The position numbers and the translations under genes are program-made. This document shows positions 2 to 23,613 of a stretch of DNA of 32,000 nucleotides, in pieces. The DNA is from Candidatus Saccharimonadota bacterium (lineage in GTDB: Archaea; Micrarchaeota; Micrarchaeia; Micrarchaeales; Micrarchaeaceae): the NCBI RefSeq assembly GCF_002214165.1, contig NZ_CP019964.1, positions 150,001-182,000 of the forward strand, given 5' to 3'. The notes below the pieces were generated by a model. It was not told the DNA's origin. It saw only the letters and a list, made by a program, of their open reading frames with translations, and searched no databases. Positions within the stretch are counted from its first letter, which is position 1; the number at the start of each line of letters is the position of its first letter.

Positions 2-136
2 TCCGACAAGGAGAAAAGCGACTTGGGAAGCAAGATGTCAAAGCTTGGTGATGCAGAGAAGGCACTATTAAGCGCAAGAGATGACAAAATAAGCGAGGGG
101 ATTAACCTTATAGATAAAATGGTAAACGGTGGATGA
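2..136 (+). CDS. 3' end of an upstream gene, product not identifiable from 44 residues
   Basis: Frame 2 is open from the window edge (SDKEKSDLGSKMSKLGDAEKALLSARDDKISEGINLIDKMVNGG) to TGA at 134-136. That stop overlaps the ATG at 133 of the next gene (ATGA coupling). A secretion ATPase often sits upstream of T2SSF genes, but no motif is visible here. Confidence 0.4.
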   Translation, partial: SDKEKSDLGSKMSKLGDAEKALLSARDDKISEGINLIDKMVNGG

Positions 137-1155: not shown

Positions 1156-1159
1156 TACA

Positions 1160-2146: not shown

Positions 2147-2343
2147 TCCATACCCAAAAAGGTGAATAAACCTGCATCACGAAATAATTGACGATTATAC
2201 TTACCCGATATCTATTTATCGTATCTTTTAATGCACTTGCTAGTCGGATTTTGTATAACTTTTGATAAAATGAAAATATCCTATCTATAACCATCAATGC
2301 AATAATGCAAAATTAGCGGATATAAATGCATTCAATACATCTA

Positions 2344-5975: not shown

Positions 5976-6511
5976 TCAACCGCCAAATTACCATTTGTCC
6001 AGGTTTCAACTATGACAGATACCTGCATGTTATTCAGCATTGCACTTGAAGTCTGCCTCACCACACTAGTAGCATTGTACAGTGCAGGGTTTCTGCCTAT
6101 CTTTATATTTATTCCACTGCCCCTTATTACTATATAGTAATTGTACGAAGCCCCTAAAGAAGTCTTTGTAGCCTGATAATTTGAATTTGCCATGGCTATG
6201 AAGGTATAAAGCTTGCTATTGCTTATCTGATCGGATCCATTCTTCAACAAACCTATTGATATTTCATTCCAATTTGCATTATCGGATAAATTTACATCAT
6301 CTTGCCAATTTATAGGGTAACCTGGTGTCATTAAGGTGCCCGACATTGTAAATGCCTGTATACTCATCACCGTGGATCCATCGCTGTAAGAAAGGGCCAG
6401 CTGATTGTTGATATTATACCAAGTATAAGCCAGCAAGGTCAATGCCACAGTAAATATGACTATCGAAAATATGACATCGATACTCCAAAACTGTGCTTTG
6501 GCATTTTTCAT
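5972..6511 (-). CDS. Small pilin-like protein (class III signal, no LamG module)
   Basis: The ORF track extends this gene to 6562. Starts at ATG 6511 (MKNAKA|QFWSIDVIFSIVIFTVALTLL) or ATG 6523 place a short basic leader directly before the hydrophobic helix and avoid a long overlap with the upstream gene, whose stop is at 6516-6518. The rest is a ~150-aa globular domain. Confidence 0.65.
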   Translation of the reverse strand: MKNAKAQFWSIDVIFSIVIFTVALTLLAYTWYNINNQLALSYSDGSTVMSIQAFTMSGTLMTPGYPINWQDDVNLSDNANWNEISIGLLKNGSDQISNSKLYTFIAMANSNYQATKTSLGASYNYYIVIRGSGINIKIGRNPALYNATSVVRQTSSAMLNNMQVSVIVETWTNGNLAVD

Positions 6512-6515
6512 ATTA

Positions 6516-9197
6516 TCAACCATGCAACGAATATTTCTTGTAAGGCGGAAGCCCCTGTTCATAAAGCTGTTCTATCTCTGTACCATTCAAGGTCGAATTG
6601 TATATCTGTATATCGGAGATAGTTCCTGTGAAGTTCTCCGGTGTGTTAGGAGGTCTTGTACCTGGTATAGAGGTTGTCAGATAATCTTCTACTCCTGATG
6701 AACTGTATTCTCCAATGGAGCTTCCAACTTCACCTCCGTCTATATAAAAGGTTCCAACCCCTGGCGAACCGCTATTATAAGTCAAAGCCGCAAAATAAGT
6801 TGTATTAAATGAACCTTCAAAAGGTATACTTCCAGTATTGTAAACCCAACCAAATATATATCCTGTCCTATTCATGCTTACGAATGGCATGTTCCAGCCA
6901 TTAGGTGCACTTATCCCTACAATAGGCCCTCCGTTATGAGGGCTGTTGAACCACGCAACTACTGTAAAATTATGATTGGTGCCAAGCCAATAACCTATTG
7001 TGGAATTTATCTTAGCGCTATTTGCACCCGAACTTCCATTTAAGAAAAGGTAAGGTCTTGAATTGATATGCTTGCTAAACACGGCACTTGTGAATCTCAC
7101 ATTGGAAAATGAGTCTATAACTGTTGTATTATACCCATAATCTTCTGTAGTGTTGTCCAATGTGAACCATGCAATTAAGTTGGATCCCCCTAAAGGCGCA
7201 GAAGCCATCCCATTTTTATACAATTCTGCCACCTGGTAACTTTTGAGCTCATCAGCATACAGTTGTAAATTTGCTATAGAGCCATTGAAGCCATCAGGGT
7301 AAAAGCTGCTATTGTAACCTATGTAATATGGAGAATATTGGGTAATTGGCAGGAAAGCCGCGGTGCTGCTGTTTATTAATAGGTCATTTTCAAACAATCT
7401 TTCAGAACCTGTATTGAAATTGTACTCAGCGGTTACAAAAGTCCATTTGTCTTTAGGGATGCTGATGGTTTTATTAGAAAATACTGGATAATTACCTATC
7501 TCCAAGCTCAAATCTCCTGTCTTATTTATGTAAAGTGAAAATCCAGAGTTGGCTGTCCTATTTATATCATTTATTATAGTTTCTGGCTGCGTTGAAGGAC
7601 CTCTGTAATAAACCCACGCGCTGACTGTGAAAGAGTTATTTCTTGCGATATCAAGCAGGACATCAGAGGGAGGAACCTCTACATATGTCGGTGAAGAGGG
7701 AGTGAAATTAGCAACGTAAATCTTTGCGTAATCAGATTCATTTTCCCAAGTGTAATTGCCGGATATCTGGCCGACATTTCCTATCCCGCTCAAATCAAAT
7801 ATTGTATTACTGTATCCCGAATCCAAAGGATACCATCCAACCAAGTTGTCTTCAGAGAACAGATTGCCGTTGAATGCATTTACCGTTACGTTGTCGGTGC
7901 CGTTTGTCCATACCACATCAGTGACGTTGCTTATCAAGTTTGAGGTTAGGTAATTCGTGAATTTAAGAGGGGAGCCTAAAGTTCCCGTGCCTGTGACCAA
8001 TCCAAGGTCAACGCCATTTAGCTGATTGTTTAATATATTAGATGCATTCATAGACAATATGAAGCTATTGCTGAACGTCAGCCCTTTTGAAGTAATTTGA
8101 GGGGTTGAAGTATAATTGCCCAGATAATTATTTATATTGCCATTCAGGGTCCACCATCCAACCAAGTTATTGAAATCTGATGGCGCCCCGTTCATCCCAG
8201 AAGAATAAATATACTTTACGTAGCTTGAATTTACTGCTTCGTTATAAATTTGTAGGTTTGCCATTGAGCCTTGGAAATAAGCACCATCAGTAGGGAAATA
8301 ACCAATATATATTGGACCAGATAAGCGTGGTATTGGAGTATTAGTTGTGTTGTCGATAAGAACTCCATTTACATAAAGATGCATCGCCCCGCTTGTATAG
8401 TTATATGTGCCGACTACGTTCTGCCATTTGAAATATGAAATATCTGCATACGTTGAGCTTCCTCCACCTCCATCATTGCTGAACTGGAGCTTGGGATTAG
8501 TAGTAGTGCCTTGCTCTATCATATATGGAGCGCCAGTTCCAGAATTAGCCTGTCCCAAAAACCCTCCGTTATTAGGATCCCAAGAAATGGGGTTTACCCA
8601 TATGCTCCAGGTAAAGCTGTTTGATTCCAGCTCACTGGTATTTGGTATATTTATGTCTGCATTCCCATCGAAATTAGCAACCTTTCCATATCCTTGCACT
8701 GATGTCATAAGATGCTCTGCCAGGTAGTCATATCCTGCGGTATAAGAGTTTATTATTATATGGCCATTGTTGTTGTAAAATTCCATTGTTCCAGCAGATG
8801 GAACACGATAAAAGTCATACCCTACAGGAGTACCAGAGATTTGCATATTTCTTGCAGCGCTATAAGACAATGCTGTTATATTCTCATTCCCTACCTTCAT
8901 AGTGGCTATTACTTCGCCTCCGCTACTCAACGATAAATTATAGTTGTCGAATGTGCCTGTACTAGGAAGGGTAATAGATGACAAATATCCATTTCCAGAC
9001 TCTAAGGCAATATCTATGTGCTCGGCTACGGTTTGTGTTATAAGTTGGAGTTCAGAATATTCCTGCTCCTGCAAGGAGTAAGCCCTTTCGTTAGCAACAA
9101 GTGCAAATATGACTAAAAATATTAGGAGGACTATAGAATAAACTATTACAAACTCTATAGCTATCTGGGATTTGCTCTTGCCACATTTGCTATTCAA
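6516..9197 (-). CDS. Giant pilin-like (class III signal, DUF361-type QxxxEF) surface protein with three complete LamG modules
   Basis: 893-aa ORF. N-terminus is KSKS|QIAIEFVIVYSIVLLIFLVIFALV, with Glu at +5. LamG signatures: FTWSIWVNP...LYVNGVLIDN...SMANLQIYNEAVNSSYVKYIYSSG; FTVSAWVYY...SIANLQLYADELKSYQVAELYKNG; FTVVAWFNSP...TISDIQIYNSTLNGTEIEQLYEQG. There is no ATG before about residue 100, so the TTG at 9197 is the only start that keeps the signal. Confidence 0.75.
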   Translation of the reverse strand: MNSKCGKSKSQIAIEFVIVYSIVLLIFLVIFALVANERAYSLQEQEYSELQLITQTVAEHIDIALESGNGYLSSITLPSTGTFDNYNLSLSSGGEVIATMKVGNENITALSYSAARNMQISGTPVGYDFYRVPSAGTMEFYNNNGHIIINSYTAGYDYLAEHLMTSVQGYGKVANFDGNADINIPNTSELESNSFTWSIWVNPISWDPNNGGFLGQANSGTGAPYMIEQGTTTNPKLQFSNDGGGGSSTYADISYFKWQNVVGTYNYTSGAMHLYVNGVLIDNTTNTPIPRLSGPIYIGYFPTDGAYFQGSMANLQIYNEAVNSSYVKYIYSSGMNGAPSDFNNLVGWWTLNGNINNYLGNYTSTPQITSKGLTFSNSFILSMNASNILNNQLNGVDLGLVTGTGTLGSPLKFTNYLTSNLISNVTDVVWTNGTDNVTVNAFNGNLFSEDNLVGWYPLDSGYSNTIFDLSGIGNVGQISGNYTWENESDYAKIYVANFTPSSPTYVEVPPSDVLLDIARNNSFTVSAWVYYRGPSTQPETIINDINRTANSGFSLYINKTGDLSLEIGNYPVFSNKTISIPKDKWTFVTAEYNFNTGSERLFENDLLINSSTAAFLPITQYSPYYIGYNSSFYPDGFNGSIANLQLYADELKSYQVAELYKNGMASAPLGGSNLIAWFTLDNTTEDYGYNTTVIDSFSNVRFTSAVFSKHINSRPYLFLNGSSGANSAKINSTIGYWLGTNHNFTVVAWFNSPHNGGPIVGISAPNGWNMPFVSMNRTGYIFGWVYNTGSIPFEGSFNTTYFAALTYNSGSPGVGTFYIDGGEVGSSIGEYSSSGVEDYLTTSIPGTRPPNTPENFTGTISDIQIYNSTLNGTEIEQLYEQGLPPYKKYSLHG

Positions 9198-9278: not shown

Positions 9279-9737
9279 TCACTCTATCTTTATCGAATTC
9301 TCCTTAGCTCTGTCAGACTTATCCACATTTATTGTCAGTGTGCCATTTTCATACTTTGCCTTTGCCGTTTCGGATTTTACCTCTTCTGGAAGTGAAATTT
9401 CCCTGTAATAGCCTATTGAAGCCCTTTCCTTGGAGTAATAATTCTTTTTTTCAATCTCTTTATTCTCACTTTTTTCTGCTTTGACTATTATGCGGTCACT
9501 TTTTACCTTGAGGTCCAAATTTTTCTTATCTACTCCAGGCATGTCCAATTTTATCTGCAACGAGTCTCCCTTGTCTATTATATCTGCATCTGGTATATTG
9601 AATCCATTTTCAGCTATATCAAAGTACCTTTCTGGATGCAGTGACCAAAGTGCGGAGCGCATAAACCTGTCCATTCCAGAAAATACATCAAATGGGTCAT
9701 ACAGCTTAACCCTGTTCTCTTCTTTTTTGTTTTCCAT
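9279..9737 (-). CDS. hsp20: Small heat-shock protein, Hsp20/alpha-crystallin family
   Basis: Alpha-crystallin domain: DIIDKGDSLQIKLDMPGVDKKNLDLKVKSDRIIVKAEKSE...YYREISLPEEVKSETAKAKYENGTLTINVDK. The track starts at GTG 9746. ATG 9737 is preferred because GGGTGA (9743-9748, minus strand) lies 5 nt upstream of it. Confidence 0.9.
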   Translation of the reverse strand: MENKKEENRVKLYDPFDVFSGMDRFMRSALWSLHPERYFDIAENGFNIPDADIIDKGDSLQIKLDMPGVDKKNLDLKVKSDRIIVKAEKSENKEIEKKNYYSKERASIGYYREISLPEEVKSETAKAKYENGTLTINVDKSDRAKENSIKIE

Positions 9738-9753
9738 TTTATTCACCCGTTTT

Positions 9754-9778
9754 AAATGTCAACTTTTATTTGACATTT
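9754..9778. promoter_or_regulatory. Perfect inverted repeat AAATGTCAA-N7-TTGACATTT, candidate operator
   Basis: Read directly: arms at 9754-9762 and 9770-9778 are exact reverse complements. The repeat lies between the hsp20 start (9737) and its predicted TATA box (about 9791-9801), in the intergenic region shared with the divergent wHTH regulator gene. Confidence 0.5.
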
Positions 9779-9790
9779 TCAACAATTAAT

Positions 9791-9801
9791 TATTATATAT
9801 A
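9791..9801 (-). promoter_or_regulatory. Candidate TATA box for hsp20
   Basis: The minus strand reads CTATATATAATA. A start about 25 nt downstream would fall near 9770, inside the palindrome. Confidence 0.3.
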
Positions 9802-9807
9802 GAAAGT

Positions 9808-9817
9808 TATTTAAATA
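9808..9817 (+). promoter_or_regulatory. Candidate TATA box for the regulator-grpE-dnaK-dnaJ transcript
   Basis: TATTTAAATA is centred about 27 nt upstream of the ATG at 9840. That ATG has no Shine-Dalgarno sequence, which fits a leaderless mRNA. Confidence 0.35.
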
Positions 9818-9839
9818 TTTTGGTGCATTAATATAAGCG

Positions 9840-10277
9840 ATGAAGTTTATAATAATAAAGTCAGTTGACAAGCCCTATTCGGATGATCCTGACTCTTTCA
9901 TAAGTTGGTTCTGCAAGTCATTTGGACTGGAAAGTGAAATAGAGAACAGCGACAGCATAGAGAAGGATTTGTTAAAGCAGTTTATAAATGCGGCATTGGC
10001 AGGTAAGGGCATATCAAGCAGTGACTTGACTGAAAATTTCAAAATAGCCAGGACTACTATAATATATCATCTTAATAGGCTTATAGAAGCAGGATGGATA
10101 GTAAAAAGAGGAAGAATGTACTATCTAAGAGGGAAAGAATTGAGCGATGTGATAGAGGAGATTGAATACGATATAAATCGCGAAATGATGAAAATGCTTG
10201 ACATAGCTAAACAATTTGATAGATTATCTAAGAGCAGATCAGAAAATAAAAAGTTTAAAAAAGTAAAAATCGAGTGA
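9840..10277 (+). CDS. Winged helix-turn-helix transcriptional regulator, candidate heat-shock regulator
   Basis: 145-aa ORF. HTH-like segment ISSSDLTENFKIARTTIIYHLNRLIEAGWIVKRGRMYYLRG, followed by a charged, probably coiled-coil tail. Its stop codon abuts the grpE region and it is divergent from hsp20. Confidence 0.65.
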   Translation: MKFIIIKSVDKPYSDDPDSFISWFCKSFGLESEIENSDSIEKDLLKQFINAALAGKGISSSDLTENFKIARTTIIYHLNRLIEAGWIVKRGRMYYLRGKELSDVIEEIEYDINREMMKMLDIAKQFDRLSKSRSENKKFKKVKIE

Positions 10278-10289
10278 GTGGTGTTAAGG

Positions 10290-10985
10290 ATGGATGACAA
10301 GAAGGATTCTAAAAAAGAGAAAGTCAATTCAGCGGATAATGGGATTCAAGGGTCAAATGCCAAAGAAGATAAAGATGTTAAAGAGTCTAGAAACGAAGAA
10401 AATAAGTCAGAAGAAACTTCTGAAGGTAACAAAGGAGACAACCACTTAGTGGAAGTGGAAGAGGACTTAAAGGCAAGAACGGAAGAGGTTAAGGAATATA
10501 AGGAAAGGATGTTGCGCATGGCCGCGGAATTTGACAATTACAAGAGGAGAGTACAAGTTGATTTAAATAATGCAAACAGTTTGGGGAAGTTAGATGTGGT
10601 CAAGAAATTGCTTCCCGTAATTGATGAATTTGAATTGGCACTAAAAGCCGTTGAAAAATCCAATGACAAGGAAGTAAAAGAAGGTATAGAGATGCTGTAT
10701 AAAAATATCATGAATATACTTAAAAAGGAAGGGCTGGAGGAGATTCAATCAACAGGCAAGTACGACCCCTATCTCCATGATATTGCAGTGGTTAAAGAGA
10801 GCAACGATCCGGATGGCCACATTCTTCAAGTCATAAGCAAAGGATATAAATTCAATGGCAATGTGATAAGGCCAGCATCGGTAATAATATCAAAAAAAGA
10901 GAATGATAAAGGGCAAGGAGAGAAGAAAGAGAACAAAGACAGTAAAGGAAGCCCTTCTGATAATGAAGAGCACAATATGGAATGA
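10290..10985 (+). CDS. grpE: Nucleotide exchange factor GrpE
   Basis: GrpE signature KEYKERMLRMAAEFDNYKRRVQVD plus the C-terminal beta domain (HDIAVVKESNDPDGHILQVISKGYKFNGNVIRPASVIISK). The track starts at GTG 10278. ATG 10290 has GGTG 6 nt upstream. N- and C-terminal K/E/D-rich tails. Confidence 0.9.
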   Translation: MDDKKDSKKEKVNSADNGIQGSNAKEDKDVKESRNEENKSEETSEGNKGDNHLVEVEEDLKARTEEVKEYKERMLRMAAEFDNYKRRVQVDLNNANSLGKLDVVKKLLPVIDEFELALKAVEKSNDKEVKEGIEMLYKNIMNILKKEGLEEIQSTGKYDPYLHDIAVVKESNDPDGHILQVISKGYKFNGNVIRPASVIISKKENDKGQGEKKENKDSKGSPSDNEEHNME

Positions 10986-11018
10986 AATTTATTATACTTA
11001 ATTATAAACGGTGAAACT

Positions 11019-12875
11019 ATGAGCGAAAAAATAATAGGAATAGATTTAGGAACTTCAAATTCTGCTGCAGCTGTTTTAGAAGGTGGTAGACCTACCATAA
11101 TACCAAGCAGCGAAGGTGCGTCCCTATACGGAAAGGCTTTCCCAAGCTATGTTGCGTTTACAAAAGACAACCAAATTTTAGTTGGAGAGCCTGCAAAAAG
11201 GCAAGCGGTTGCAAACCCTGAAGGTACAATAAGCGGGTTTAAAAGGAAAATGGGAACCGACTTCATTTACCATATTAACAACAAGGACTATAAGCCACAG
11301 GAGCTTTCTGCAATGATACTGCAGAAAATAAAAAGGGACGCAGAAGCCTTTTTAGGCGAACCAGTAAAAAAGGCCGTCATAACAGTTCCTGCATATTTCA
11401 ATGATAACCAAAGGCAGGCAACGAAGGATGCAGGGGCAATTGCAGGGTTGGATGTAGTCAGATTGGTCAATGAACCTACTGCTGCATGCTTGGCCTATGG
11501 CTTGGACAAGAATGACAAAGAGATGAAAATCCTTGTATATGATCTTGGAGGAGGAACCTTGGATGTAACAATAATGGAATTTGGAAAAGGTGTATTTGAG
11601 GTAAAATCAACCAGTGGAGATACGCAGTTGGGCGGAACAGATATGGACAAGGCGATAGTGGATTTCCTAGTAAGTGAAATCAATAAGCAGTATGGAATTG
11701 ATGTATCAAAGGACATTCAGGCAATCCAAAGGTTAAAAGAAGCAGCAGAGAAAGCGAAAATTGAGCTTTCAACAGTGCTTACAACCGATATAAGCTTGCC
11801 TTTCCTATCCCAAAAGGCGGGGCAGCCCATAAACTTCTCATATAAATTAGATAGGGCAAAGCTTGAGAGCTTGGTGTTGCCAATAATAGAAAGATCCGCA
11901 AAACCGGTAAGGCAGGCGCTTGAGGATTCAAAGATAGAGCCAGAGCAGCTAGACAAGATAATACTTATAGGAGGGCCAACAAGGATGCCAATAACCCAGA
12001 GGTATGTAGAGCAGCTGATTGGCAAAAAGATAGAGAGAGGCGTAGATCCCATGGAAGCTGTTGCACTAGGTGCAGCAATACAGGGAGGAGTCCTTACAGG
12101 AGAAGTCAAAGACATACTGCTATTGGATGTTACACCTCTAACGCTTAGCATAGAGACATTAGGAGGAGTAGCAACACCAATAATAAAGAGGAATACGACA
12201 ATACCAATAAAGGACTCACAAGTATTCACAACTGCGGATGATTTCCAGACCAGTGTAGATATACACGTGTGCCAGGGAGAGCGCCCTCTGTTCAAGGACA
12301 ACATAGATTTGGGAAGGTTCACCTTAACAGGCTTGCCTCCAGCAAAACGCGGTGTCCCTCAAATAGAAGTAACTTTTGATATAGACTCTAACGGTATACT
12401 CCATGTAACTGCAAAGGACAAAGCATCAGGAAAGAGCCAGTCGATAGATATAGTCGCTCCGAACAAGATGAATAAGGATGACATAGAAAAGAAGATAAAA
12501 GAAGCACAGGAGAACGAAGAGAAAGACAAAAAAATAAGGGAGCAGATAGAAATAAAGAACAACGCGGAATCAATGATCTATACAACAGAGCATACGGTTG
12601 AGGATTTGAAGGACAAGCTGTCAGAGGATGACAAGAAGAAGCTTGAGGACTTAAAGAGCAAGCTTCAAGATTTGGTGAGCAAGGACGATTATGATGCAAT
12701 AAAAGCAGCTACCAATGAACTCCAAACCGCTTTGGCAGACATAAGCAGCCACCTTTACCAGGCAGCCTCCGGAAACAGCCAAGGACCTTCAGGTGGCAAC
12801 CCTGGAGAAGGCGGCAATCCTTCTGATAACTCAAGTGAAGGAACGACTGATGCAAACTTTAAAGCAGGAAGTTGA
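11019..12875 (+). CDS. dnaK: Chaperone DnaK (Hsp70)
   Basis: [34 protein letters not shown] and [13 protein letters not shown] are unambiguous Hsp70 motifs. GGTGA Shine-Dalgarno upstream. Confidence 0.98.
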
Positions 12876-12888
12876 TTTAAATATTTGA

Positions 12889-12901
12889 TTTTTATTTTTT
12901 T
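12889..12901 (+). terminator. Oligo-T tract after dnaK (possible archaeal terminator or attenuator)
   Basis: TTTTTATTTTTTT lies 14 nt after the dnaK stop. Archaeal termination typically uses oligo-T. Confidence 0.35.
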
Positions 12902-12939
12902 GTAATACATAAGTAACCCATATAGCAGGTGTAAGAAAG

Positions 12940-14052
12940 ATGACTAAAGACTACTACTCAATTTTAGGTGTCAGCAAAAATGCATCACAGGAAGATATCA
13001 AGAGCGCTTATAGGCAGCTGGCCCTAAAGTACCATCCAGATAGGAATAAGGATCCATCTGCTGAGGAGAAATTCAAGGAGATAAATGAAGCTTATGCCGT
13101 GCTGAGCAATCCAGAGAAGAGAAAGCAATACGATGCATATGGCCCTGAAGGATTTAACAGGCAATACAACCAAGAGGATATATTCAGGAACTTTAATTTT
13201 GAGGACATATTCCGTGATATGGGATTCAATGTAGGGGGAAATTTCTCTGAAAGCGATGATTTCTTCGATACAATATTCGGTGGTGGCAGAGGCGGTAGGC
13301 AAAGGGATGATCAAGGGAAAGACTTGCTTACAAAGGTAAACATATCAATGGAAGAGGCAGTACATGGAACTTCAAAAAGAATAAAGATTACGCATATAAA
13401 GGAATGCGACAAATGCAAAGGAACAGGGGTTGAGCCAGGATACAAGATTAAAAAATGCCCTACATGTGCAGGAACTGGGCAGGTAAGGAATGTACGAAGA
13501 ACACCATTTGGGATGATGCAGACTATAAGCATCTGCCCTACATGCGGGGGAACTGGAAATATACCAGAGAAGAAGTGCACAAAGTGCAACGGTACGGGAA
13601 GGCTTAATGCAAGTGAAACAATAGATGTCGAAGTACCAAGAGGAATCGCCACGGGCAACAGGCTTAGGGTTTCCGGAATGGGAGACTATGGAAAGGACGG
13701 TCAGGGGGACTTATATATAGAGATAAACATACTTCCAGACAAGCGATTTGTAAGGAGGGGAGATGATATCTACATGGAAGCTCATGTACCATTCTATACA
13801 GCTATAACTGGTGGTGTCGAGAAAGCAAAAGGTATAGATGGCGAGGTTGAATTTGAAGTAGAGCCTGGCACGCAGGACAGTGAGCAGGTATTGGTAAAGG
13901 GCAAAGGGATGCCGCATTTCAATAAAGGCGGCTTCGGAGATTTGATAATAAAGATAAAAGTGGATATCCCAAAGAAGCTCACTTCTGAACAGAAGGAGCT
14001 GATAGAGAAGTTCAAGGATCTCGATTCCAATAAAAAATCATGGTTCAAGTAA
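12940..14052 (+). CDS. dnaJ: Co-chaperone DnaJ (type I: J domain, G/F region, four CxxCxGxG zinc motifs)
   Basis: [33 protein letters not shown]. Zinc motifs [24 protein letters not shown] and [13 protein letters not shown] Shine-Dalgarno upstream. Confidence 0.97.
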
Positions 14053-14056
14053 TCAT

Positions 14057-15397
14057 ATGAAGCAACAATTAAACGATAATCTACTGTCCGCTTACAATCC
14101 TTGGTGGAGCAGTAAATACCGGAATGCCAAAAAAACCAAATACCTCGCTTATTACAGCAAATTGTACAAGCTCCCTGAGCTCAAAAACGGCCAAAAGCTG
14201 ATAATAACAAATACAGATTATAACGAATCTATTATAAAGCAAATTCTATATGGGTATGTAAACCGCAGAAGATCTAAGAGAAATATGGTGTATGTGCCTT
14301 TTGAAAATTTGGGGGATTCTGACGTAATAAGTATATTCAGGGAGATAAAGAAAAGCCCTAGCAAGCTGGATGTATTTGTAAGCGGGATAGACCCATATCT
14401 GAAATTTTCCTTAGATAAAGGAAAACTACTATTCAGCACAATAAACAACTCCAAAAGCATAAAGAAACTATTTATATCAACAAGGTTCCTGCCGTCAAGC
14501 ACAAGCAACAGGCATATTACAAAGCTTTCAACAGGAGCAAAGCACTATACTATAAGCCCTATCACTTTCAGAGACTATATATTGAAATTCGGCAAGCACG
14601 ATATTAAAGGTTATTTAGCATCTCTTCCAATTATAGCAAAATCCAACCCTAAATATATGGAGAAAATATACTTGCAGGCTTGTGCAATAAGGGATTCAGG
14701 CAACGAGAGCTTTTTTAAGGACCTGTTCTCGTCATATTCAAGATCCGGCGGATTTATAAGCTCGATAGTGGATTACAAGAACAAAGAGGATCTATATGAT
14801 GCAGTCTATAATTACCGAAAATCATTGATGCAAGAATTCGAAAGCCTTAAAGTCCCTGCTTATGATCTAGAGAAACTACTTTTTGCCATAACAAATTCCT
14901 GCGGCAGCATATATACTTTTGATTCAATGGAATCTGATACTAAGCTGCCAAAGAGGTTGGTGATGTACTATTATAAACTGCTATTAGATCTTGGCATAAT
15001 AAAGCCTGTATTAAAATTTGACATCAAAAATAACAGTCCAACAAAATTAGTAAGAAAAACATATCTGTCCGATCCAATAACCTATATTGCGTTTTCTGAT
15101 TTTTACAATAACTATAACAGGACCGAGATCCTGATGCAGGGCCCATTAATCGAAAACATTGTAGGGGTTGAGCTGATGCGAAGGTTTGGTCAAGTATACA
15201 CTTTGAAGGAGGGGGTAGAGGTAGATTTCTTCCTGCCTAGCATGGATTTAGGTATAGAGGTCAAAAGCGGCAGCGCAAAGTATAACTCTTACCATATGGA
15301 TTTCCCAAGGAATCGGGTAGTATTCAATTCAAACAGGTTAAAGAAAGAAAATGGGTTGTTCGAGATACCTTACTACCTATTCTTGGCACTGATGTAA
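14057..15397 (+). CDS. COG1373-like (AAA_14 + DUF4143) protein with degenerate Walker A and B motifs
   Basis: Family-typical N-terminal NPWW. C-terminal DUF4143-like block: GPLIENIVGVELMRRFGQVYTLKEGVEVDFFLPSMDLGIEVKSG. Where the P-loop G-x-R-x-x-GKT is expected the sequence is LIITNTDYNESII. Where Walker B (hhhhDE) is expected it is VFVSGID. The gene starts 4 nt after the dnaJ stop. Confidence 0.6.
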   Translation: MKQQLNDNLLSAYNPWWSSKYRNAKKTKYLAYYSKLYKLPELKNGQKLIITNTDYNESIIKQILYGYVNRRRSKRNMVYVPFENLGDSDVISIFREIKKSPSKLDVFVSGIDPYLKFSLDKGKLLFSTINNSKSIKKLFISTRFLPSSTSNRHITKLSTGAKHYTISPITFRDYILKFGKHDIKGYLASLPIIAKSNPKYMEKIYLQACAIRDSGNESFFKDLFSSYSRSGGFISSIVDYKNKEDLYDAVYNYRKSLMQEFESLKVPAYDLEKLLFAITNSCGSIYTFDSMESDTKLPKRLVMYYYKLLLDLGIIKPVLKFDIKNNSPTKLVRKTYLSDPITYIAFSDFYNNYNRTEILMQGPLIENIVGVELMRRFGQVYTLKEGVEVDFFLPSMDLGIEVKSGSAKYNSYHMDFPRNRVVFNSNRLKKENGLFEIPYYLFLALM

Positions 15398-15419: not shown

Positions 15420-15911
15420 TCAAGCAGTACCAAGTTTTATAGCAGGGAATCCATGCTCTTTTCCAACCTGGTTGAATATGTCAACCGATTCTCTCGCAAG
15501 CGCTATATCAGGATCGACATCAAACGCTATTGCCATGTTTATTATCTTGTCCATTGTTGCCTCTTGACCGCTTGTCAATATAAATAATATTGATATGACG
15601 TATACAAGATGGTTCTTGAACTTTATGCTTGCAATGCCATTTAGGATATCCCTGTTTACTGGGACTCCAATTGCATTGAAAAGGCGCTCTATATTATTTC
15701 TGTTTATGTCCTTTCCTGTTATATCAAGTACCCCTGCAGCTACAAAGTAAGGGAGTACATTGCCTGCAAGGTTTGCCGGTATATAACTGTTTATTTCTGC
15801 TAACCCTCTTTTAACCTGCGCAGTTAGCAAAAAAGAAATGAGATCCCTGGTGAACCCTATGTCATCATTCAGTATTTGCATTAAGCTTTTTCCTTCTTCC
15901 ATAAAAACCAT
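15420..15911 (-). CDS. Small protein of unknown function; possible tandem repeat of a ribosomal stalk P1/aL12 N-terminal-domain-like fold
   Basis: Two ~45-aa segments, YFVAAGVLDITGKDINRNNIERLFNAIGVPVNRDILNGIASI and YVISILFILTSGQEATMDKIINMAIAFDVDPDIALARESVDIF. Both resemble my recollection of the archaeal P1 NTD (Y.YAALLLh..GKEI.EENl.aVL.AAGVE..EARvKALVAAL). No acidic tail. ATG 15911 overlaps the upstream stop (TGATG); the track starts at TTG 15914. Confidence 0.5.
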   Translation of the reverse strand: MVFMEEGKSLMQILNDDIGFTRDLISFLLTAQVKRGLAEINSYIPANLAGNVLPYFVAAGVLDITGKDINRNNIERLFNAIGVPVNRDILNGIASIKFKNHLVYVISILFILTSGQEATMDKIINMAIAFDVDPDIALARESVDIFNQVGKEHGFPAIKLGTA

Positions 15912-16648
15912 CAATTTGACAATACATCAAAGCCTGAATCTGTTATCTGGTATGGCAAGCTTGATAATTTATGTGCCGAATTCCTAAGCTTAGTTACTTC
16001 TATCGAATACTGTGTAGCACCTTCACTGCGATTCATGCTAAGCACCATTATTCCATCAAACATTGATGTGCTGTAAAGCCCTATGCTTAAAGGATCGCTG
16101 TTGCTAACATTCTGATTAACCTCATATGTCAGTATTGAGGTCACTCCAATATCCCTCAAAGCTTCGGTCATATAGGTTATTGCTCTTGTAAATGTCCTAT
16201 CGTCTTCCATGATAGGCCTTAAGCTGCTTATAGAATCAAAAATCACTAATTTTGATTTATTGGTCTGTATATCTGATACACAATCGCTTATGAATTTTTC
16301 AAAGTTCTCCCTGCTCTTGAATGCATCTATTAATGGTCTGTGGCTTATTTGTATCATGTTGCTGCTTATATAATCTTCATAATCGTCGAAAGAATAAAAG
16401 GCATTTTTTATATTATTAACCAATGCTCCCTTCCTTTCTTCATTGGTAATGAAGGTGGACGGAATTTCAAGCTTTGCATTATGGTATAATATTTCGAGCG
16501 AAAGAAGCGTTTTTCCCGCTCCCGGAGACCCCAAGAAAAGAATCTGCGATCCCTCCGGAATTCCTCCTCCAACCATATTGTCCAACCCCTTAACCCCTGT
16601 TTTTATTCTATTTACTACTCCACTATCTATATTCACACCAATTTTCAA
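15911..16648 (-). CDS. KaiC-like / RecA-superfamily single-domain ATPase (paralog B)
   Basis: TGVKGLDNMVGGGIPEGSQILFLGSPGAGKTLLSLEILYHNAK (Walker A), paired glutamates TNEER, Walker B LVIFDSIS. The start is TTG 16648 in a TTGA overlap with the upstream stop; GTG 16636 is an alternative. Confidence 0.85.
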   Translation of the reverse strand: MKIGVNIDSGVVNRIKTGVKGLDNMVGGGIPEGSQILFLGSPGAGKTLLSLEILYHNAKLEIPSTFITNEERKGALVNNIKNAFYSFDDYEDYISSNMIQISHRPLIDAFKSRENFEKFISDCVSDIQTNKSKLVIFDSISSLRPIMEDDRTFTRAITYMTEALRDIGVTSILTYEVNQNVSNSDPLSIGLYSTSMFDGIMVLSMNRSEGATQYSIEVTKLRNSAHKLSSLPYQITDSGFDVLSN

Positions 16649-17376
16649 TCCTTTATCTGAGGCAATGACAAGACTGCTATACCATCACCTTTTATCTCAT
16701 AAGGATACGTTCTGAAACTATGGTCCGTGCCCCTCATCTTGATAACCTCCAATATTGGGACTCTATTGTTGCTCCCACCCTCCAGATAAAGCGAGATTAT
16801 ACCATCATACATGAAGAATTCTGGTTTGAACTGTATATCCTCTCTTGTTGCGGTGTTCAATTCTATTGTCATTAAGGATGTTATATTCTGTGAGCGCAAT
16901 CCATTAATAAGGTCCATAGTCAGCTGCCTATACGTCAGCTTGTCCTTTATCATGAGCTTGATTACCGTTATAGAATCAACTACCAAATTGCTTGCTTTGT
17001 ACGAACTGGCAATAGAGCTTATTCCCGATACCAATTCATTGAAAGAATAACTTCCGCCATCGGTATCTCTCTGTACATACTGTCCCGTTTTTTCAGATCC
17101 ATAAATAATTAGCTTGTTCTGGCTTATCAAGTCGTCTATGTCTTTAAACTCCGGAAAAGCGGCTTTTGCATTCTCTACTATCATGTCAGAGGTTTCTTCC
17201 AGCGAGAACATCAGACTTACTTCTCCGGCTTTTGCATTATGGTAAAGGTACTCAAATGAAAAAAGAGTTTTACCTGCCCCTGGCCCTCCTGCCAATGCAA
17301 CCTGGTTGCCCTGTGGTATACCACCCCCTACAATATCATCAAAATTTTTTATTCCTGTTTTAGTCCTTTCTCTCAT
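16645..17376 (-). CDS. KaiC-like / RecA-superfamily single-domain ATPase (paralog A)
   Basis: TGIKNFDDIVGGGIPQGNQVALAGGPGAGKTLFSFEYLYHNAK (Walker A), FSLEETS paired glutamates, Walker B LVVDSITV, and ILEVIKMRGTDHS near the C-terminus. Confidence 0.85.
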   Translation of the reverse strand: MRERTKTGIKNFDDIVGGGIPQGNQVALAGGPGAGKTLFSFEYLYHNAKAGEVSLMFSLEETSDMIVENAKAAFPEFKDIDDLISQNKLIIYGSEKTGQYVQRDTDGGSYSFNELVSGISSIASSYKASNLVVDSITVIKLMIKDKLTYRQLTMDLINGLRSQNITSLMTIELNTATREDIQFKPEFFMYDGIISLYLEGGSNNRVPILEVIKMRGTDHSFRTYPYEIKGDGIAVLSLPQIKD

Positions 17377-17523
17377 CGGAATCTATATTATTATCCCATT
17401 CAATATATTTAAATTATTCCTCGACCGTTGCATTAAATTCAAAGTCCTATAAATTTTCCAATAATATAAGAGTATTAATAGATATGATATAAAAAATATC
17501 TAAAGCTTGAAATAGGGGTTTCC

Positions 17524-18699
17524 ATGGATCTAGATAGTTCTTTTAAGTTTCTTGAGTATTCAAGAGCCAGCAGAAGCGCTGGAATAATATTCATGGTGCT
17601 TGCCTTTCCTTTATACTTAAAACTGCTCAACTTAAAACTTGTAACTATAGGGATAATAATTGCGGCTATAATGCTTGTCACGGTTATTGAAACGCTGGCA
17701 CTTGGAATGTTTGGGGACAGATATGGCTATAAATACAGCTTGCTGATAGCCGAATTGCTACCTGTAATAGGAGCATTCCTTCTGTTCTATTCAAGCAGCT
17801 TGGATATTATAATAATCGCCATGGTGATAACAGGATTAAGCGGCGGTGCTGGTGGAATGAGGGGATTATTTTCACCAGGCCTAACCGCATTGATAGCAAG
17901 CAACTATGAAAACGAATCTATAAGAGTCAAGAAATTAGGAATCCTTACAATGCTCACATCACTTTTTTCCATCCTTGGATCATTTATGCTTGCTTCGGAA
18001 TCGTTTATATCAAGATACGTCGGCACATTGATGGCTTACAGGTACCTTTTCCTTTTCGCAGACTTGCTGCTTCTAATATCCTTCATAAGCATAATATTTG
18101 TCAAGGAAATCAAGAGGCCTAAGAAGACATCAAAGATAATGAAGAAGGAGAGCTTCAAATACATATCAAAAATAATGGTGATCAATATAGTCTCTGGAGT
18201 CGGAACAGGGATTTCCGTGCCCCTGCTTCCTTTATGGATAGAACTGATGTATAGCACGGGTGCCACAACTGTAGGTATAATATTCGGAATCTCATATATT
18301 ACAACCGCACTTGGTTCTTATCTCGCATCAAAATCCTTTGGCCGCTTCAATGTTCTCAATGTCTCTTCAATTACCAGGACAGCAAGCGGCATCATTCTGA
18401 TAGCGATGGCTCTGTCACCTACTGTAATAATAGCCGGGTTTATGTATATATTGAGGTCGATATTTGCAGGCTTTGGAAGCCCTAACAGGTCTGCCCTAAA
18501 TGTGCGTGGCATAGACAAAGAGGATTACGGTTCAGCTACCAGCTTCAACGGGGTATCAAGCAGGATGTCCCAGTTGAGTTCTGGGTTAAGCGGGTACCTT
18601 ATGGATATATCACTGCCAATACCTTTGATAATAGGGGGCATATTTCAAGGCGCAAGCGGCATACTATACAAGATATTTATAAAAGAAAAGAAGAAATGA
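17524..18699 (+). CDS. Major facilitator superfamily (MFS) transporter
   Basis: 391-aa polytopic membrane protein with about 10-12 hydrophobic helices, an MFS-like loop motif GMFGDRYGYKYS after TM2, and a basic central loop (KEIKRPKKTSKIMKKE). Confidence 0.7.
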   Translation: MDLDSSFKFLEYSRASRSAGIIFMVLAFPLYLKLLNLKLVTIGIIIAAIMLVTVIETLALGMFGDRYGYKYSLLIAELLPVIGAFLLFYSSSLDIIIIAMVITGLSGGAGGMRGLFSPGLTALIASNYENESIRVKKLGILTMLTSLFSILGSFMLASESFISRYVGTLMAYRYLFLFADLLLLISFISIIFVKEIKRPKKTSKIMKKESFKYISKIMVINIVSGVGTGISVPLLPLWIELMYSTGATTVGIIFGISYITTALGSYLASKSFGRFNVLNVSSITRTASGIILIAMALSPTVIIAGFMYILRSIFAGFGSPNRSALNVRGIDKEDYGSATSFNGVSSRMSQLSSGLSGYLMDISLPIPLIIGGIFQGASGILYKIFIKEKKK

Positions 18700-18846: not shown

Positions 18847-19230
18847 TCATATTATTATGGAGTTCAAGTTCCTTCCTATCTTTAGTGCATTCGTCATTGT
18901 TATGGTGTAATGCTTATCTGTTTCATTCATCTCTTCTGGCTTTATGAAGTACCATCCTTTAATGTTCATCCTCCAAGCTATAAATGTATTCATTCCCGTG
19001 TTGCTTTCCCAATCCATGAGGCTTTTGTACCTATCCTTGTCTATAGACAGGCTCGATCTATCCCAGGCTTTGCACTCGAATGCAAACCCTTTCTTATTCT
19101 TTATAACAATTATGTCAGGGCTAAGCGAGTTAACTCCGCTTCCTGCGGACCGTATCACGGAATAATTAAGCTTGTAGAAGAAATTTATCAACTCCCTCTC
19201 ACTCCTAGCTCCTTTTACATATCTGTGCAA
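18847..19230 (-). CDS. hjc: Holliday junction resolvase Hjc
   Basis: KGARSERELINFFYKLNYSVIRSAGSG...SPDIIVIKNKKGFAFECKAW matches the archaeal Hjc catalytic pattern (E...D...E-x-K). Confidence 0.9.
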   Translation of the reverse strand: MHRYVKGARSERELINFFYKLNYSVIRSAGSGVNSLSPDIIVIKNKKGFAFECKAWDRSSLSIDKDRYKSLMDWESNTGMNTFIAWRMNIKGWYFIKPEEMNETDKHYTITMTNALKIGRNLNSIII

Positions 19231-19341
19231 GCAACCACTCTTCTAAAAGCCAATAAATAATTGAGCAGCTAAAGTTATAAATTTATTCCTAACCTGCTGA
19301 TTTATAACACGACAATTAAAATGAGCATTATAATCTAAAGA

Positions 19342-20901
19342 TTAGAAAAGCCTCTTTTGGCCCGCCTTTGCCGCAGCCGGCTTTGGCATTCTCTCCAGGC
19401 TTTTCTTTATCCTAAGTATCATATCATACATCTTTTTCTCCCTGAAACTTGAAACCATGAAATATGTTTCATCTTTTGTATCCTTTGTTATCAGCACGTA
19501 TATGTTTCCAACATTGAATCTTCCTGTCCTGCCCTTCCTTTGTATGCTCCTTATAGAGCTAGTTATTGGCTCGTAGAATATCACCGTATCCACGCTAGGT
19601 ATATCAAGGCCTTCTTCTCCAATAGAAGTAGCTACAAGAATGTTGAACTTCCCATCCCTGAAGTCCTTTATAACTTGCATCTGCTGATCCTGTGTCACTC
19701 CTTCCTTTTTCCCTACAAAGGCCATCGCTTTTAAGCCTGCATTGTTCAAAACTTCAACTATCTTTGATATTGTATAGCGGTACTGCGCAAAGATAATTAT
19801 CTTGTTGTCTATGTGATTTTCAGTTATAAGCTGCACAAGAGCTTTCATCTTCGGGTGCTCCTCCCCGTTTTTGAGTGCTGTTTCTGCTATGCCAACCGCT
19901 TTCAAAAATACATGGTTTTTGAGCATGCTTTGCACGCTCCGATTCTTCTTCTCTTTATTTCTTATCGAATCTATATAAGACATGAATGGCTGAATGCCTT
20001 CTGTGGTTACCAAGTCGTAAGCATGGAGCAGGTCAAGTACGTATATATAGTGGAATATTGCTATGAATTTGTAATTGCTTCCCTTAAGCTGGTCTATGTT
20101 TTTACCGATGTCCAAAATCCTCATTTTTGAGATAGACTCCAGCTTCTTGAACGGGCACAAGCCTATATGGAACAAAGCATAAAGGTGCTCTTCAATTAGT
20201 CCTTTTAGCAAAGAAGAAATCCTTTCTACGGTTTCCCCTTTCTCAACCAATATCTTTGTCACATTTTTTTCTTTTACGTAAGGTGCCACGTCAGGATCTT
20301 CTGGAGTTCTAACTTCTATATTGTCTATTGCAAGGGTGTCAATCAGTTCCATAATCTTGTCCCTACTATTCCCAGGTGATGCTGTAAGCCCCAATATTTT
20401 AATGTTCTTTTCCTTGCATTTATCTGCCACATAGGTATATGCATACCTGCCTACTGCCCTATGAACTTCATCAAATATAGCAATCCCAAATTGGTCAAGG
20501 TCAAGGTTTGAGGATTTCAGGTCATTTGCAACTGTCTGTGGGGTTGCTATTATAATCCTTGCCCTCTCCTCAAGTACCTTTCTCTTTGCGATTGGCAGTT
20601 TTCCAGTCAAAAGAAGTATATCATCCTCATTTATATTTAGAAGTGAGCGCAGAGAATTAAAGTGCTGTTCGCTAAGAGGCTTTGTAGGGGCAAGCATCAA
20701 TGCCTTTTTGCCATCATATAGGGTGCACGCAATTGAAAATACCGCTATCAAAGTTTTTCCAAGCCCTGTAGGAAGCACGACCAACGTGTTGCCTCCATTG
20801 ATTATGCTCCTGATTATGTTTATCTGGTAAGCCCTAGCCTCAATGCCCTTTGATTTGACAAGCTCAGAGCATTGGCCTATAAACGAAAAGTCATTTTCCA
20901 T
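19342..20901 (-). CDS. hef: Hef/FANCM/Mph1-type SF2 helicase, helicase portion only (no ERCC4 nuclease domain)
   Basis: ARAYQINIIRSI...LVVLPTGLGKTLIA (motif I), IFDEVHRAVG (motif II, DEVH), LGLTASPG (motif III), and the C-terminal lobe VATSIGEEGLDIPSVDTVIFYEP...QRKGRTGR (motifs V and VI). The ORF ends at 519 aa, soon after motif VI. Confidence 0.85.
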   Translation of the reverse strand: MENDFSFIGQCSELVKSKGIEARAYQINIIRSIINGGNTLVVLPTGLGKTLIAVFSIACTLYDGKKALMLAPTKPLSEQHFNSLRSLLNINEDDILLLTGKLPIAKRKVLEERARIIIATPQTVANDLKSSNLDLDQFGIAIFDEVHRAVGRYAYTYVADKCKEKNIKILGLTASPGNSRDKIMELIDTLAIDNIEVRTPEDPDVAPYVKEKNVTKILVEKGETVERISSLLKGLIEEHLYALFHIGLCPFKKLESISKMRILDIGKNIDQLKGSNYKFIAIFHYIYVLDLLHAYDLVTTEGIQPFMSYIDSIRNKEKKNRSVQSMLKNHVFLKAVGIAETALKNGEEHPKMKALVQLITENHIDNKIIIFAQYRYTISKIVEVLNNAGLKAMAFVGKKEGVTQDQQMQVIKDFRDGKFNILVATSIGEEGLDIPSVDTVIFYEPITSSIRSIQRKGRTGRFNVGNIYVLITKDTKDETYFMVSSFREKKMYDMILRIKKSLERMPKPAAAKAGQKRLF

Positions 20902-22812: not shown

Positions 22813-23613
22813 TTATAGCTCTAAATATTGATTTATAAATTGGGAGATCTTAAGCAGTGCTTCAGGATTTATCTTGAACACTTTAGTTTTTGAAAGATCA
22901 ATCCCTTTAAGGTTATTGTCTTCATTCAAGATTCTCATTACCTGCGCTATCCTTTCTTGTGTCAATCCCAAGTTTTTTTGAGAATCCAAAATAGCGTTCT
23001 TCAGGATCTTTTTCTTGTGCTCCATTATAAGGTCCAATATCCTGTATTCAGATGCAGAGACCTTATTTTTTACAGGCTTTAAATAAATTATTTCAGAATC
23101 CACCTTTGGGACAGGATAAAACGAGCCCCTTTTGACTTTCATTATCTTGTATACTGAAAAATTCAGCTGTGCGAATACACTCAATTTAGAATAATTCCTT
23201 TCCCCTGGCTTTGCGGTAAGCCTTTCCGCAAATTCTTTCTGCACGCACAACAGGGCTTCCTTGTGGTTATCCGCAAGCCACTTCAATGTTTTACTTGACA
23301 GATTGTAGGGTATGTTTGATATTATAATTTCGTATTTGCTCGCATCAATGTCAAATTCAAAGAAATCCATATTTAATAAAGTCAAGTTAGGCTCATATGC
23401 GAGAGAGCTCAGCAATTCCTCATACAACGAAGAATCCTTTTCAACCGCAAGTACGGATTTTGCCCTTTTGCAAAGCTCCTCTGTCAATATCCCCCTGCCT
23501 GGACCAATCTCTATCACATTCCTGTTTCTGCCATATTCAGATTCAATAGCAGCTATATTACGGTTATTCAGGAAATTTTGGCCTAGTGATTTTTTAATAT
23601 GGGGAAGGTTCAA
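22813..23613 (-). CDS. ksgA: 16S rRNA (adenine1518/1519-N6)-dimethyltransferase KsgA/RsmA/Dim1
   Basis: KKSLGQNFLNNRNI, the SAM-binding motif VIEIGPGRGILTEEL, and the catalytic NIPYNLSS. Confidence 0.92.
   Translation of the reverse strand: MNLPHIKKSLGQNFLNNRNIAAIESEYGRNRNVIEIGPGRGILTEELCKRAKSVLAVEKDSSLYEELLSSLAYEPNLTLLNMDFFEFDIDASKYEIIISNIPYNLSSKTLKWLADNHKEALLCVQKEFAERLTAKPGERNYSKLSVFAQLNFSVYKIMKVKRGSFYPVPKVDSEIIYLKPVKNKVSASEYRILDLIMEHKKKILKNAILDSQKNLGLTQERIAQVMRILNEDNNLKGIDLSKTKVFKINPEALLKISQFINQYLEL

Follow-up and report, generated by a model that had tools for sequence, protein, structure and literature searches.

What is a small, non-enzymatic protein that resembles a doubled piece of the ribosomal stalk doing beside two KaiC-like ATPases? 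The question is raised by three minus-strand open reading frames (ORFs) in the genome of Candidatus Mancarchaeum acidiphilum strain Mia14, a cultured, acid-loving, tiny, ARMAN-2-like member of the Micrarchaeota (DPANN). They lie within the 32,000 nucleotides (nt) analyzed here (contig NZ_CP019964.1, positions 150,001 to 182,000), which we call the window and number from its first letter. We refer to the two ATPases as KaiC-A and KaiC-B, to the small protein, annotated at NCBI as a hypothetical protein, as P1x2, and to the three genes together as the triad.

16645 to 17376, minus strand: KaiC-A, a single-domain KaiC/RecA-superfamily ATPase of 243 amino acids (aa)
15911 to 16648, minus strand: KaiC-B, a paralogous single-domain KaiC-like ATPase, an ORF of 245 aa when counted from a TTG
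15420 to 15914, minus strand: P1x2, the partner protein of about 160 aa (an ORF of 164 aa), with its stop codon at 15420 to 15422

These ORFs had been picked out in an earlier reading of the bare sequence, which we call the original prediction; all three are present, and every peptide string quoted there is found in the translations. The answer we arrive at, with a probability of roughly 60%, is that P1x2 serves a KaiC-B-type ring as its dedicated adaptor or regulator, with no enzymatic role of its own. Two kinds of evidence carry the argument, the ancestry of P1x2 and the persistence of its gene beside that of KaiC-B.

The ancestry of P1x2 is hard to see from the protein by itself. Searches of Pfam and the PDB with the single sequence return no match. 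Against the archaeal P1 model TIGR03685, P1x2 alone gives a weak match over residues 55-87 (E = 0.0076), and its whole-protein score is 16.6 bits vs. a cutoff of 100. An exhaustive phmmer search through 1.84 billion representatives defines a family of 123 representatives at E <= 1e-3. Among 159 family proteins, 111 have one module of about 160 aa, 47 have two complete modules (about 320 aa), and 1 has three. We aligned 56 single-module members (alignment A1), and the resulting profile matches the P1 protein of P. horikoshii (3a1y_A) with an E-value of 5e-10, with positions 56-98 falling on P1 residues 1-43. The second repeat of the same profile (107-153) matches the N-terminal domain of eukaryotic P2 with E-values in the range of 1e-3 to 2e-2 (1.2e-3 for 4v6i_Bv, 8e-3 for 2lbf_B). 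Taken individually, 47 of the 56 aligned members match TIGR03685, the best at 4.4e-14; PF00428 is matched weakly by 6 of them, and not by the window protein. We also observe the relationship in the reciprocal direction. When P1 residues 1-43 are compared to 1,421 ORFs from all six frames of the window and of 32 fetched loci, the only matches are the 22 P1x2 ORFs, mostly with two matches per module.

Thus, at the level of the family, there is support for the proposal that P1x2 contains two segments of about 45 aa resembling the P1 N-terminal domain, and the internal repeat that it implies is detectable as well. A pairwise self-alignment of P1x2 is not significant (score 26 vs. 22 +/- 4.3 for shuffled sequences, p ~ 0.18); an hhalign comparison of the family profiles of repeat 1 and repeat 2 aligns them over 43 columns with a probability of 98.5% and an E-value of 3.3e-15. 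Each repeat spans P1 helices 1-3 only, without helix 4. The consensus of the alignment reads PYxYAAGxLxxxGREIxxxN...G..PD, followed by HLxYxYAxYFLxxxGxE...LG..PD, and the sole columns invariant across the 56 sequences are two equivalent tyrosines, Y55 and Y104. The general plan of the family, which the window protein fits, is an N-terminal helical region of about 50 residues and then the two P1-like three-helix units in tandem. The long helix in this N-terminal region had been missed by the original prediction, and when tested with hhalign as a third repeat, it does not behave as one. The parts of the window protein, with residues numbered from the methionine at 15911, are as follows.

15792 to 15884, minus strand: N-terminal amphipathic helix, residues 10-40, modeled by AlphaFold2 (AF2) with a predicted local distance difference test score (pLDDT) of 93-95
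15615 to 15758, minus strand: P1-like repeat 1, residues 52-99, with helices at 53-64, 71-80 and 87-96 and the invariant Y55
15462 to 15611, minus strand: P1-like repeat 2, residues 101-150, with helices at 102-113, 120-129 and 136-153 and the invariant Y104
15423 to 15461, minus strand: C-terminal tail, FNQVGKEHGFPAIKLGTA, short and clade-specific, neither acidic nor a hinge

The AF2 model made from the single sequence is poor (pLDDT 53). Using the family alignment, AF2 produces a compact model with a pLDDT of 93.1 and a predicted template modeling score (pTM) of 0.82, in which the long helix (10-40) is followed by a short helix and by the two three-helix units. The highest-probability Foldseek match to the model is again 3a1y_A (probability 0.97; root-mean-square deviation 0.8 Å over 42 columns; target-normalized TM score 0.68). 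Along the N-terminal helix there is a continuous hydrophobic stripe, conserved family-wide at positions 10/11, 14, 17/18, 21, 28/29, 33, and 36/37. This stripe together with the high pTM suggests that the helix packs against the two units, possibly in the manner of the P0 spine helix in the P1 dimer. The two units may form a pseudo-dimer, and the helix may fill any P0-like groove.

In the ribosomal stalk, the N-terminal domains of P1/P2 dimerize and clamp the helices of P0, and the hinge and acidic tail serve to bring in translation factors. P1x2 ends in NQVGKEHGFPAIKLGTA, with 4 aspartates or glutamates in its last 30 residues, in agreement with the earlier remark that it has no flexible linker and no acidic tail. 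Because it lacks both, P1x2 is not a stalk protein. Judging by its profile matches, it is an exapted piece of the ribosome: helices 1-3 of the P1/P2 dimerization domain, twice, plus a long helix. The short tail that it does have, with the clade consensus YN..aP..G..I..EI, is kept in the clade with the gene order A-B-P (KaiC-A, KaiC-B, P1x2) and in the tandem copies of locus L014; the P-A-B and stand-alone forms lack it. We considered this tail (YN..aP..G..I) as a KaiC-binding element, a candidate that is weakened by the fact that the non-adjacent L014 copies have it, and the KaiC-linked P-A-B proteins (L018, L028) do not.

The second kind of evidence is the gene neighborhood. After removal of duplicates, P1x2 immediately adjoins a KaiC-B-type gene in 13 distinct Micrarchaeota lineages. 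The triad recurs in a relative with 83% identity (L001/L010), in relatives with 42-45% identity (L007/L011, L008, L012, L013), and in L015 and L016. L018 and L028 have a permuted order, P1x2-KaiC-A-KaiC-B. In L023 and L024 a double-length P1x2 lies upstream of KaiC-B and there is no KaiC-A, and in L027 a double-length P1x2 follows KaiC-A and KaiC-B. There are then four architectures (A-B-P, P-A-B, PP-B, and A-B-PP), the flanking genes differ among them, and the KaiC-linked P1x2 sequences have diverged to roughly 25-45% identity across the 13 lineages. Scanning metagenomes with KaiC-B-specific motifs as seeds gave 12 real KaiC-B-type loci; P1x2 is adjacent in 9 of them, and the other 3 end at a contig edge just past KaiC-B.

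The small gene had been expected to stay beside KaiC-like genes in other genomes, and it does. The expectation that its partner would be the pair of ATPases stands in part: the conserved pair is KaiC-B plus P1x2, and KaiC-A is frequent but dispensable in some lineages. A linkage that survives changes in gene order, loss of KaiC-A, duplication of the module, and turnover of the flanks is the pattern expected of products that physically interact.

Regarding the ATPases themselves, both match the Pfam KaiC family (PF06745, gathering cutoff 26.6 bits) over 228 of its 231 profile positions, KaiC-A with an E-value of 1e-48 (166.2 bits) and KaiC-B with 3.6e-37 (128.4 bits), and 79 of their 237 aligned residues are identical (33%). 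They are, as originally described, two single-domain KaiC-like paralogs, and the paired glutamates and Walker B motifs noted in them are intact in both. KaiC-A has the Walker A motif GGPGAGKT, the catalytic SLEE, the Walker B motif LVVDS, and KMRG; the corresponding motifs of KaiC-B are GSPGAGKT, TNEE, VIFDS, and KLRN. The Walker A motif, the glutamate pair, the Walker B aspartate, and the K-x-R(G/N) arginine-finger region are kept in 5 out of 5 orthologs of each paralog. From these motifs, both proteins are apparently catalytically competent, and they presumably form hexamers. KaiC-A orthologs keep the gene order in other genomes. KaiC-B has two motifs invariant among 16 orthologs, AFKSRENFEKF and the C-terminal PYQITxxGFDVL.

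The motifs of both paralogs align to those of the CI half of KaiC, and the best PDB match of KaiC-A is the KaiC CI half of 8zn5_B (4.6e-45). We considered whether A and B could be a KaiC split into its CI and CII halves, and we rejected it because both paralogs align better to CI than to CII. Both paralogs score below the curated cutoffs of all named subfamilies, KaiC_arch_4 and thermo_KaiC_2 included. For circadian KaiC (NF006799 / TIGR02655) the scores are 139.7 and 110.2 bits vs. a cutoff of 408, for single domains of about 240 aa vs. CI-CII proteins of about 500 aa. For ArlH/FlaH (NF052589), KaiC-A scores 28.6 and KaiC-B 55.8 bits vs. a cutoff of 215, and we found no arl genes beside the triad in the window. 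The scores for KaiC_arch_3 are 117 and 104 bits (cutoff 249), and for thermo_KaiC_1 they are 90 and 83 bits (cutoff 307).

If P1x2 is indeed an adaptor or regulator, one operon would encode a heteromeric KaiC-like ATPase (A plus B) together with its non-enzymatic partner. The core would be KaiC-B and P1x2, with KaiC-A as a third component. P1x2 would bind the KaiC-B ring in a way that depends on nucleotide or on phosphorylation, using the helix-clamping surface inherited from P1, and it would be to KaiC-B what KaiB is to the cyanobacterial KaiC. We infer the physical interaction, the docking site, and the regulatory role. A candidate for the docking site is the invariant and KaiC-B-specific motif AFKSRENF, at the position of the CI B-loop, on which KaiB and SasA dock in cyanobacteria. 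The position comes from a gapless alignment anchored at the Walker B aspartate, which places the KLVIFD of KaiC-B on residues 140-145 of the S. elongatus protein, and by this mapping AFKSRENF corresponds to KaiC residues 116-123. The B-loop of KaiC is the KaiB binding site (PMC12084410, citing Tseng et al. 2014). In KaiC-A, 6 residues are inserted at the AFKSRENF position. Our hypothesis, from this correspondence, is that P1x2 docks at AFKSRENF.

Several observations weigh against an adaptor dedicated to KaiC-B. About half of the sampled P1x2 family is not KaiC-linked. These proteins form a separate branch (L003-L006, L009) in which P1x2 stands alone with no KaiC within 5 kb, and a crude neighbor-joining tree keeps that branch apart from all KaiC-linked forms. 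In L014, two tandem P1x2 genes are about 7 kb away from a partial KaiC-B, and in L017 there is a KaiC A-B pair without P1x2. Thus, an adjacent KaiC is not needed for P1x2 to exist or, presumably, for it to function. On the structural side, none of the whole-model Foldseek E-values is significant, and the B-loop correspondence is a gapless extrapolation from sequence and not from structure. The separability of the genes, as seen in the stand-alone branch and L017, also fits mere co-regulation, in which P1x2 and KaiC would share a promoter without interacting, and the similarity to P1 would have no functional meaning. We find that improbable in view of an adjacency that, across 13 lineages, persists when the genes are reordered, when KaiC-A is lost, when the module is duplicated, and when the flanking genes are completely replaced.

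Could the target be the ribosome instead? P1x2 could dock on the P0 spine helix replacing the P1 dimer, or heterodimerize with P1, and KaiC-A/B could load it, remove it, or phosphorylate it; this would alter the number of factor-recruiting tails and couple the KaiC switch to translation. The sole detectable homologs of the repeats are the P1/P2 N-terminal domains, which are known clamps of P0 helices, some of the stand-alone P1x2 genes adjoin translation genes (L004/L009, L003), and the supplement of the Mia14 paper suggests that a normal P1 is present too. All the same, we regard a ribosomal target as unlikely. The 32 loci show no conserved neighborhood with P0, P1, L11, or any other stalk gene, and the translation genes that do appear vary by locus and could be there by chance. 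P1 helix 4 is absent from each repeat, and the conserved 30-residue amphipathic helix that P1x2 itself brings to its compact, high-pTM model may already occupy the P0-type groove. A more specific version, in which a ring of KaiC-B (plus A) loads tail-less P1x2 pseudo-dimers onto P0 or strips them from it, tuning the factor-recruiting tails of the ribosome, seems to us more doubtful still. Another reading reverses the roles and makes P1x2 the client or substrate: oligomers of P1x2, for instance a helical scaffold, would be put together, taken apart, or remodeled by the KaiC-A/B ring at the expense of ATP, and a need for multimers would explain why P1x2 comes in single, tandem-gene, and double-length forms. 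Duplication at every level (the repeat is doubled within a module, 47 of the 159 proteins have two modules, and L014 has tandem genes) does speak for selection for multivalency, and rings of the RecA superfamily commonly remodel their partners. We would nonetheless be surprised if it were so, given that a whole branch of P1x2 exists without KaiC, and that we know of no unfoldases or remodeling enzymes in the KaiC family, whose characterized roles are those of slow ATPase/kinase switches. Finally, we rejected a defense system. PADLOC models report no match to KaiC-A or P1x2, and for KaiC-B they report only P-loop-level noise (E = 2e-4 and 1.4e-3, 16-18 bits).

Some of the individual loci deserve a description. 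In the regions L004 3797-8420 and L009 3787-8263, the stand-alone P1x2 gene is near tRNA-synt_1b, a small ORF similar to EF-Tu domain 2, and KsgA/RrnaAD, and in L003 1-1236 it is near S6e and eIF2-gamma. The window has its own KsgA at 22813-23613, about 6 kb from the triad. These neighbors could be due to chance or could be a faint link to translation. L014 (4824-5906, from Micrarchaeia KM4345-18) has two single-module P1x2 genes in tandem, 3 nt apart, an arrangement that may be intermediate between the single-module and the fused double-length forms. The partial KaiC-B ortholog (P0192) ends L014's own 13.6-kb contig, and the same metagenome-assembled genome has a third P1x2 paralog (P0024) on another contig. 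L017 (2893-5524, from Micrarchaeaceae GCA_038878635) is the sole readable A/B pair without P1x2, and it has a gap of 370 nt between A and B. Downstream there are about 800 nt of AT-rich non-coding DNA, and then fragments of an IS605 HTH_OrfB and of a Cas12f/TnpB-like protein; this setting suggests that P1x2 was lost or moved in connection with a transposon. In L032 there is a lone A-type KaiC and no P1x2. Ten nt past this gene, at 1583-2638, is a Cys-/Asn-rich protein of 351 aa that begins with a transmembrane segment and matches no Pfam family, a candidate for a different partner of the A-type ATPase.

The taxonomic range of the module is narrow, the Micrarchaeota. Some carriers come from bins labeled Marsarchaeota, Saccharimonadales, or Acidoferrales. 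This is probably binning or labeling noise and not a wider host range, since the locus labeled 'Marsarchaeota' (L015) is syntenic, gene for gene, with a Micrarchaeia locus (L016).

Back in the window, the organization of the triad depends in part on where the genes start. The original prediction had linked the three genes by overlapping stops and starts. The strings are in place (TTGA at 16645-16648, TGATG at 15909-15913), but whether the genes literally overlap is uncertain because both gene calls and orthologs point to starts downstream. The JGI call for KaiC-B is 241 aa long, which corresponds to a GTG at 16636, and KaiC-B orthologs begin at the equivalents of the next few codons. For P1x2 there are three possible starts, a TTG (giving 164 aa), the ATG at 15911 (163 aa), and the ATG at 15902 (160 aa), and the last, beginning MEEGKS, is the one used in the NCBI call and in the orthologs. 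From these comparisons, KaiC-B probably starts at the GTG at 16636 (241 aa) and P1x2 at the ATG at 15902 (160 aa). Whichever starts are taken, the gaps within the triad are at most 9 nt, and the single sizeable intergenic region is that upstream of KaiC-A, so the three genes look like one operon. Upstream of KaiC-A we find a candidate promoter element:

17406 to 17413, minus strand: TATA-like element, TTTAAATA, preceding the KaiC-A ATG by about 30 nt, a candidate by its resemblance to the consensus

Scans for bacterial-type promoters and terminators at the triad give no signal above chance. The triad is flanked by a divergent gene for an MFS transporter (17524-18699) and, on the other side, by a convergent gene for a DUF4143 protein (14057-15397). 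The latter ends a complete chaperone cluster at 9279-14052, formed by HSP20 on the minus strand and then HTH_24-GrpE-DnaK-DnaJ on the plus strand. The adjacency between chaperone cluster and triad is not kept in more distant relatives, and we rejected a link to DnaK/DnaJ/GrpE since the flanking genes are different in L007, L012, L015, L016, and L018. Further away, on the minus strand (133-9197), two T2SSF-family membrane proteins (133-2146) adjoin three Laminin_G_3 (concanavalin-like) proteins of 598, 614, and 893 aa, plus an ORF of 196 aa. This is probably a pilus or surface-adhesion cluster, of relevance to a host-attached lifestyle. At 18847-20901, a Holliday-junction resolvase Hjc (127 aa) adjoins on the same strand a 519-aa Hef/XPB-like DEAD/ResIII helicase, and the pair is kept in the 83% relative (L001).

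How much of this is new? No Pfam or NCBIfam model covers the P1x2 family. Full-text literature searches found no paper that joins KaiC with the ribosomal stalk or that describes such a P1 paralog, with a prior mention in Makarova et al. 2017 being possible. That work is said to treat adjacent paralog pairs and variable small neighbors as a known theme of archaeal KaiC. To our knowledge, the P1/P2 N-terminal domain has been seen only in ribosomal stalk proteins, and what is new is a partner that is an exapted and duplicated stalk dimerization domain; KaiC-like ATPases with small variable partners were already known. IMG/JGI names several P1x2 proteins, of single and of double length, 'ribosomal protein L12E/L44/L45/RPP1/RPP2'. 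With the hinge and acidic tail missing, this label is probably a misannotation. Mislabeled P1x2 could inflate counts of ribosomal proteins and distort marker sets for DPANN genomes. As for the Mia14 genome, its paper lists as missing ribosomal proteins L37e, S17e, and S27e only, and gives a count of 1 for arCOG04287 (P1). A normal P1 is probably encoded elsewhere in the genome, and that single count could be P1x2 itself; there is no acidic-tailed ORF in any of the fetched loci.

For one of the many orphan archaeal KaiC-like ATPases, P1x2 provides a concrete candidate partner. At the same time, it is a clean case of a core ribosomal interaction domain that has found another use. And should the module indeed reach the stalk, organisms with minimal genomes, such as the host-dependent DPANN archaea, would have a new way of regulating translation.

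We close by comparing the module with the systems that it most resembles. With archaeal P1 (3A1Y), the P1x2 repeats share the Y-x-Y-A-A...G-K/R-E-I...N...G signature, and the two copies side by side echo the P1 homodimer; in P0(P1)2, the P0 spine helix would have its echo in the long helix of the same P1x2 chain. In contrast to P1, P1x2 fuses two domains into one chain, does without helix 4, the hinge, and the acidic factor-binding tail, and has its gene outside of the ribosomal operon, linked to KaiC-like ATPases. With the eukaryotic P1/P2 heterodimer (2LBF, 4BEH, 4V6I), the likeness is that repeat 2 matches P2, and that two diverged copies of one fold pair up. Here, however, the copies are covalently fused and tail-less, and the match of repeat 2, marginal by itself, depends on the relationship between the two repeats. 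KaiC-A and KaiC-B have the single RecA-like domain of about 240 aa of other archaeal KaiC-like ATPases (PH0284, 2DR3; PH0186, 2ZTS; SSO2452, 2W0M; ArlH/FlaH). Adjacent archaeal KaiC pairs appear in TIGRFAM descriptions, for instance TIGR03877/TIGR03878; what sets the triad apart is the stalk-domain partner, of which we found no description, and its scores below the cutoffs of the named archaeal subfamilies. KaiB has a thioredoxin-like fold, unrelated to that of P1x2, and unlike the cyanobacterial system, the triad has no KaiA, no hint of a clock, and single-domain ATPases in place of CI-CII fusions, which score far below the circadian cutoffs. What the two systems have in common is a small non-enzymatic partner encoded beside the ATPase, ATPases closest to the CI half of KaiC, and, in KaiC-B, the motif AFKSRENF at the position of the B-loop.

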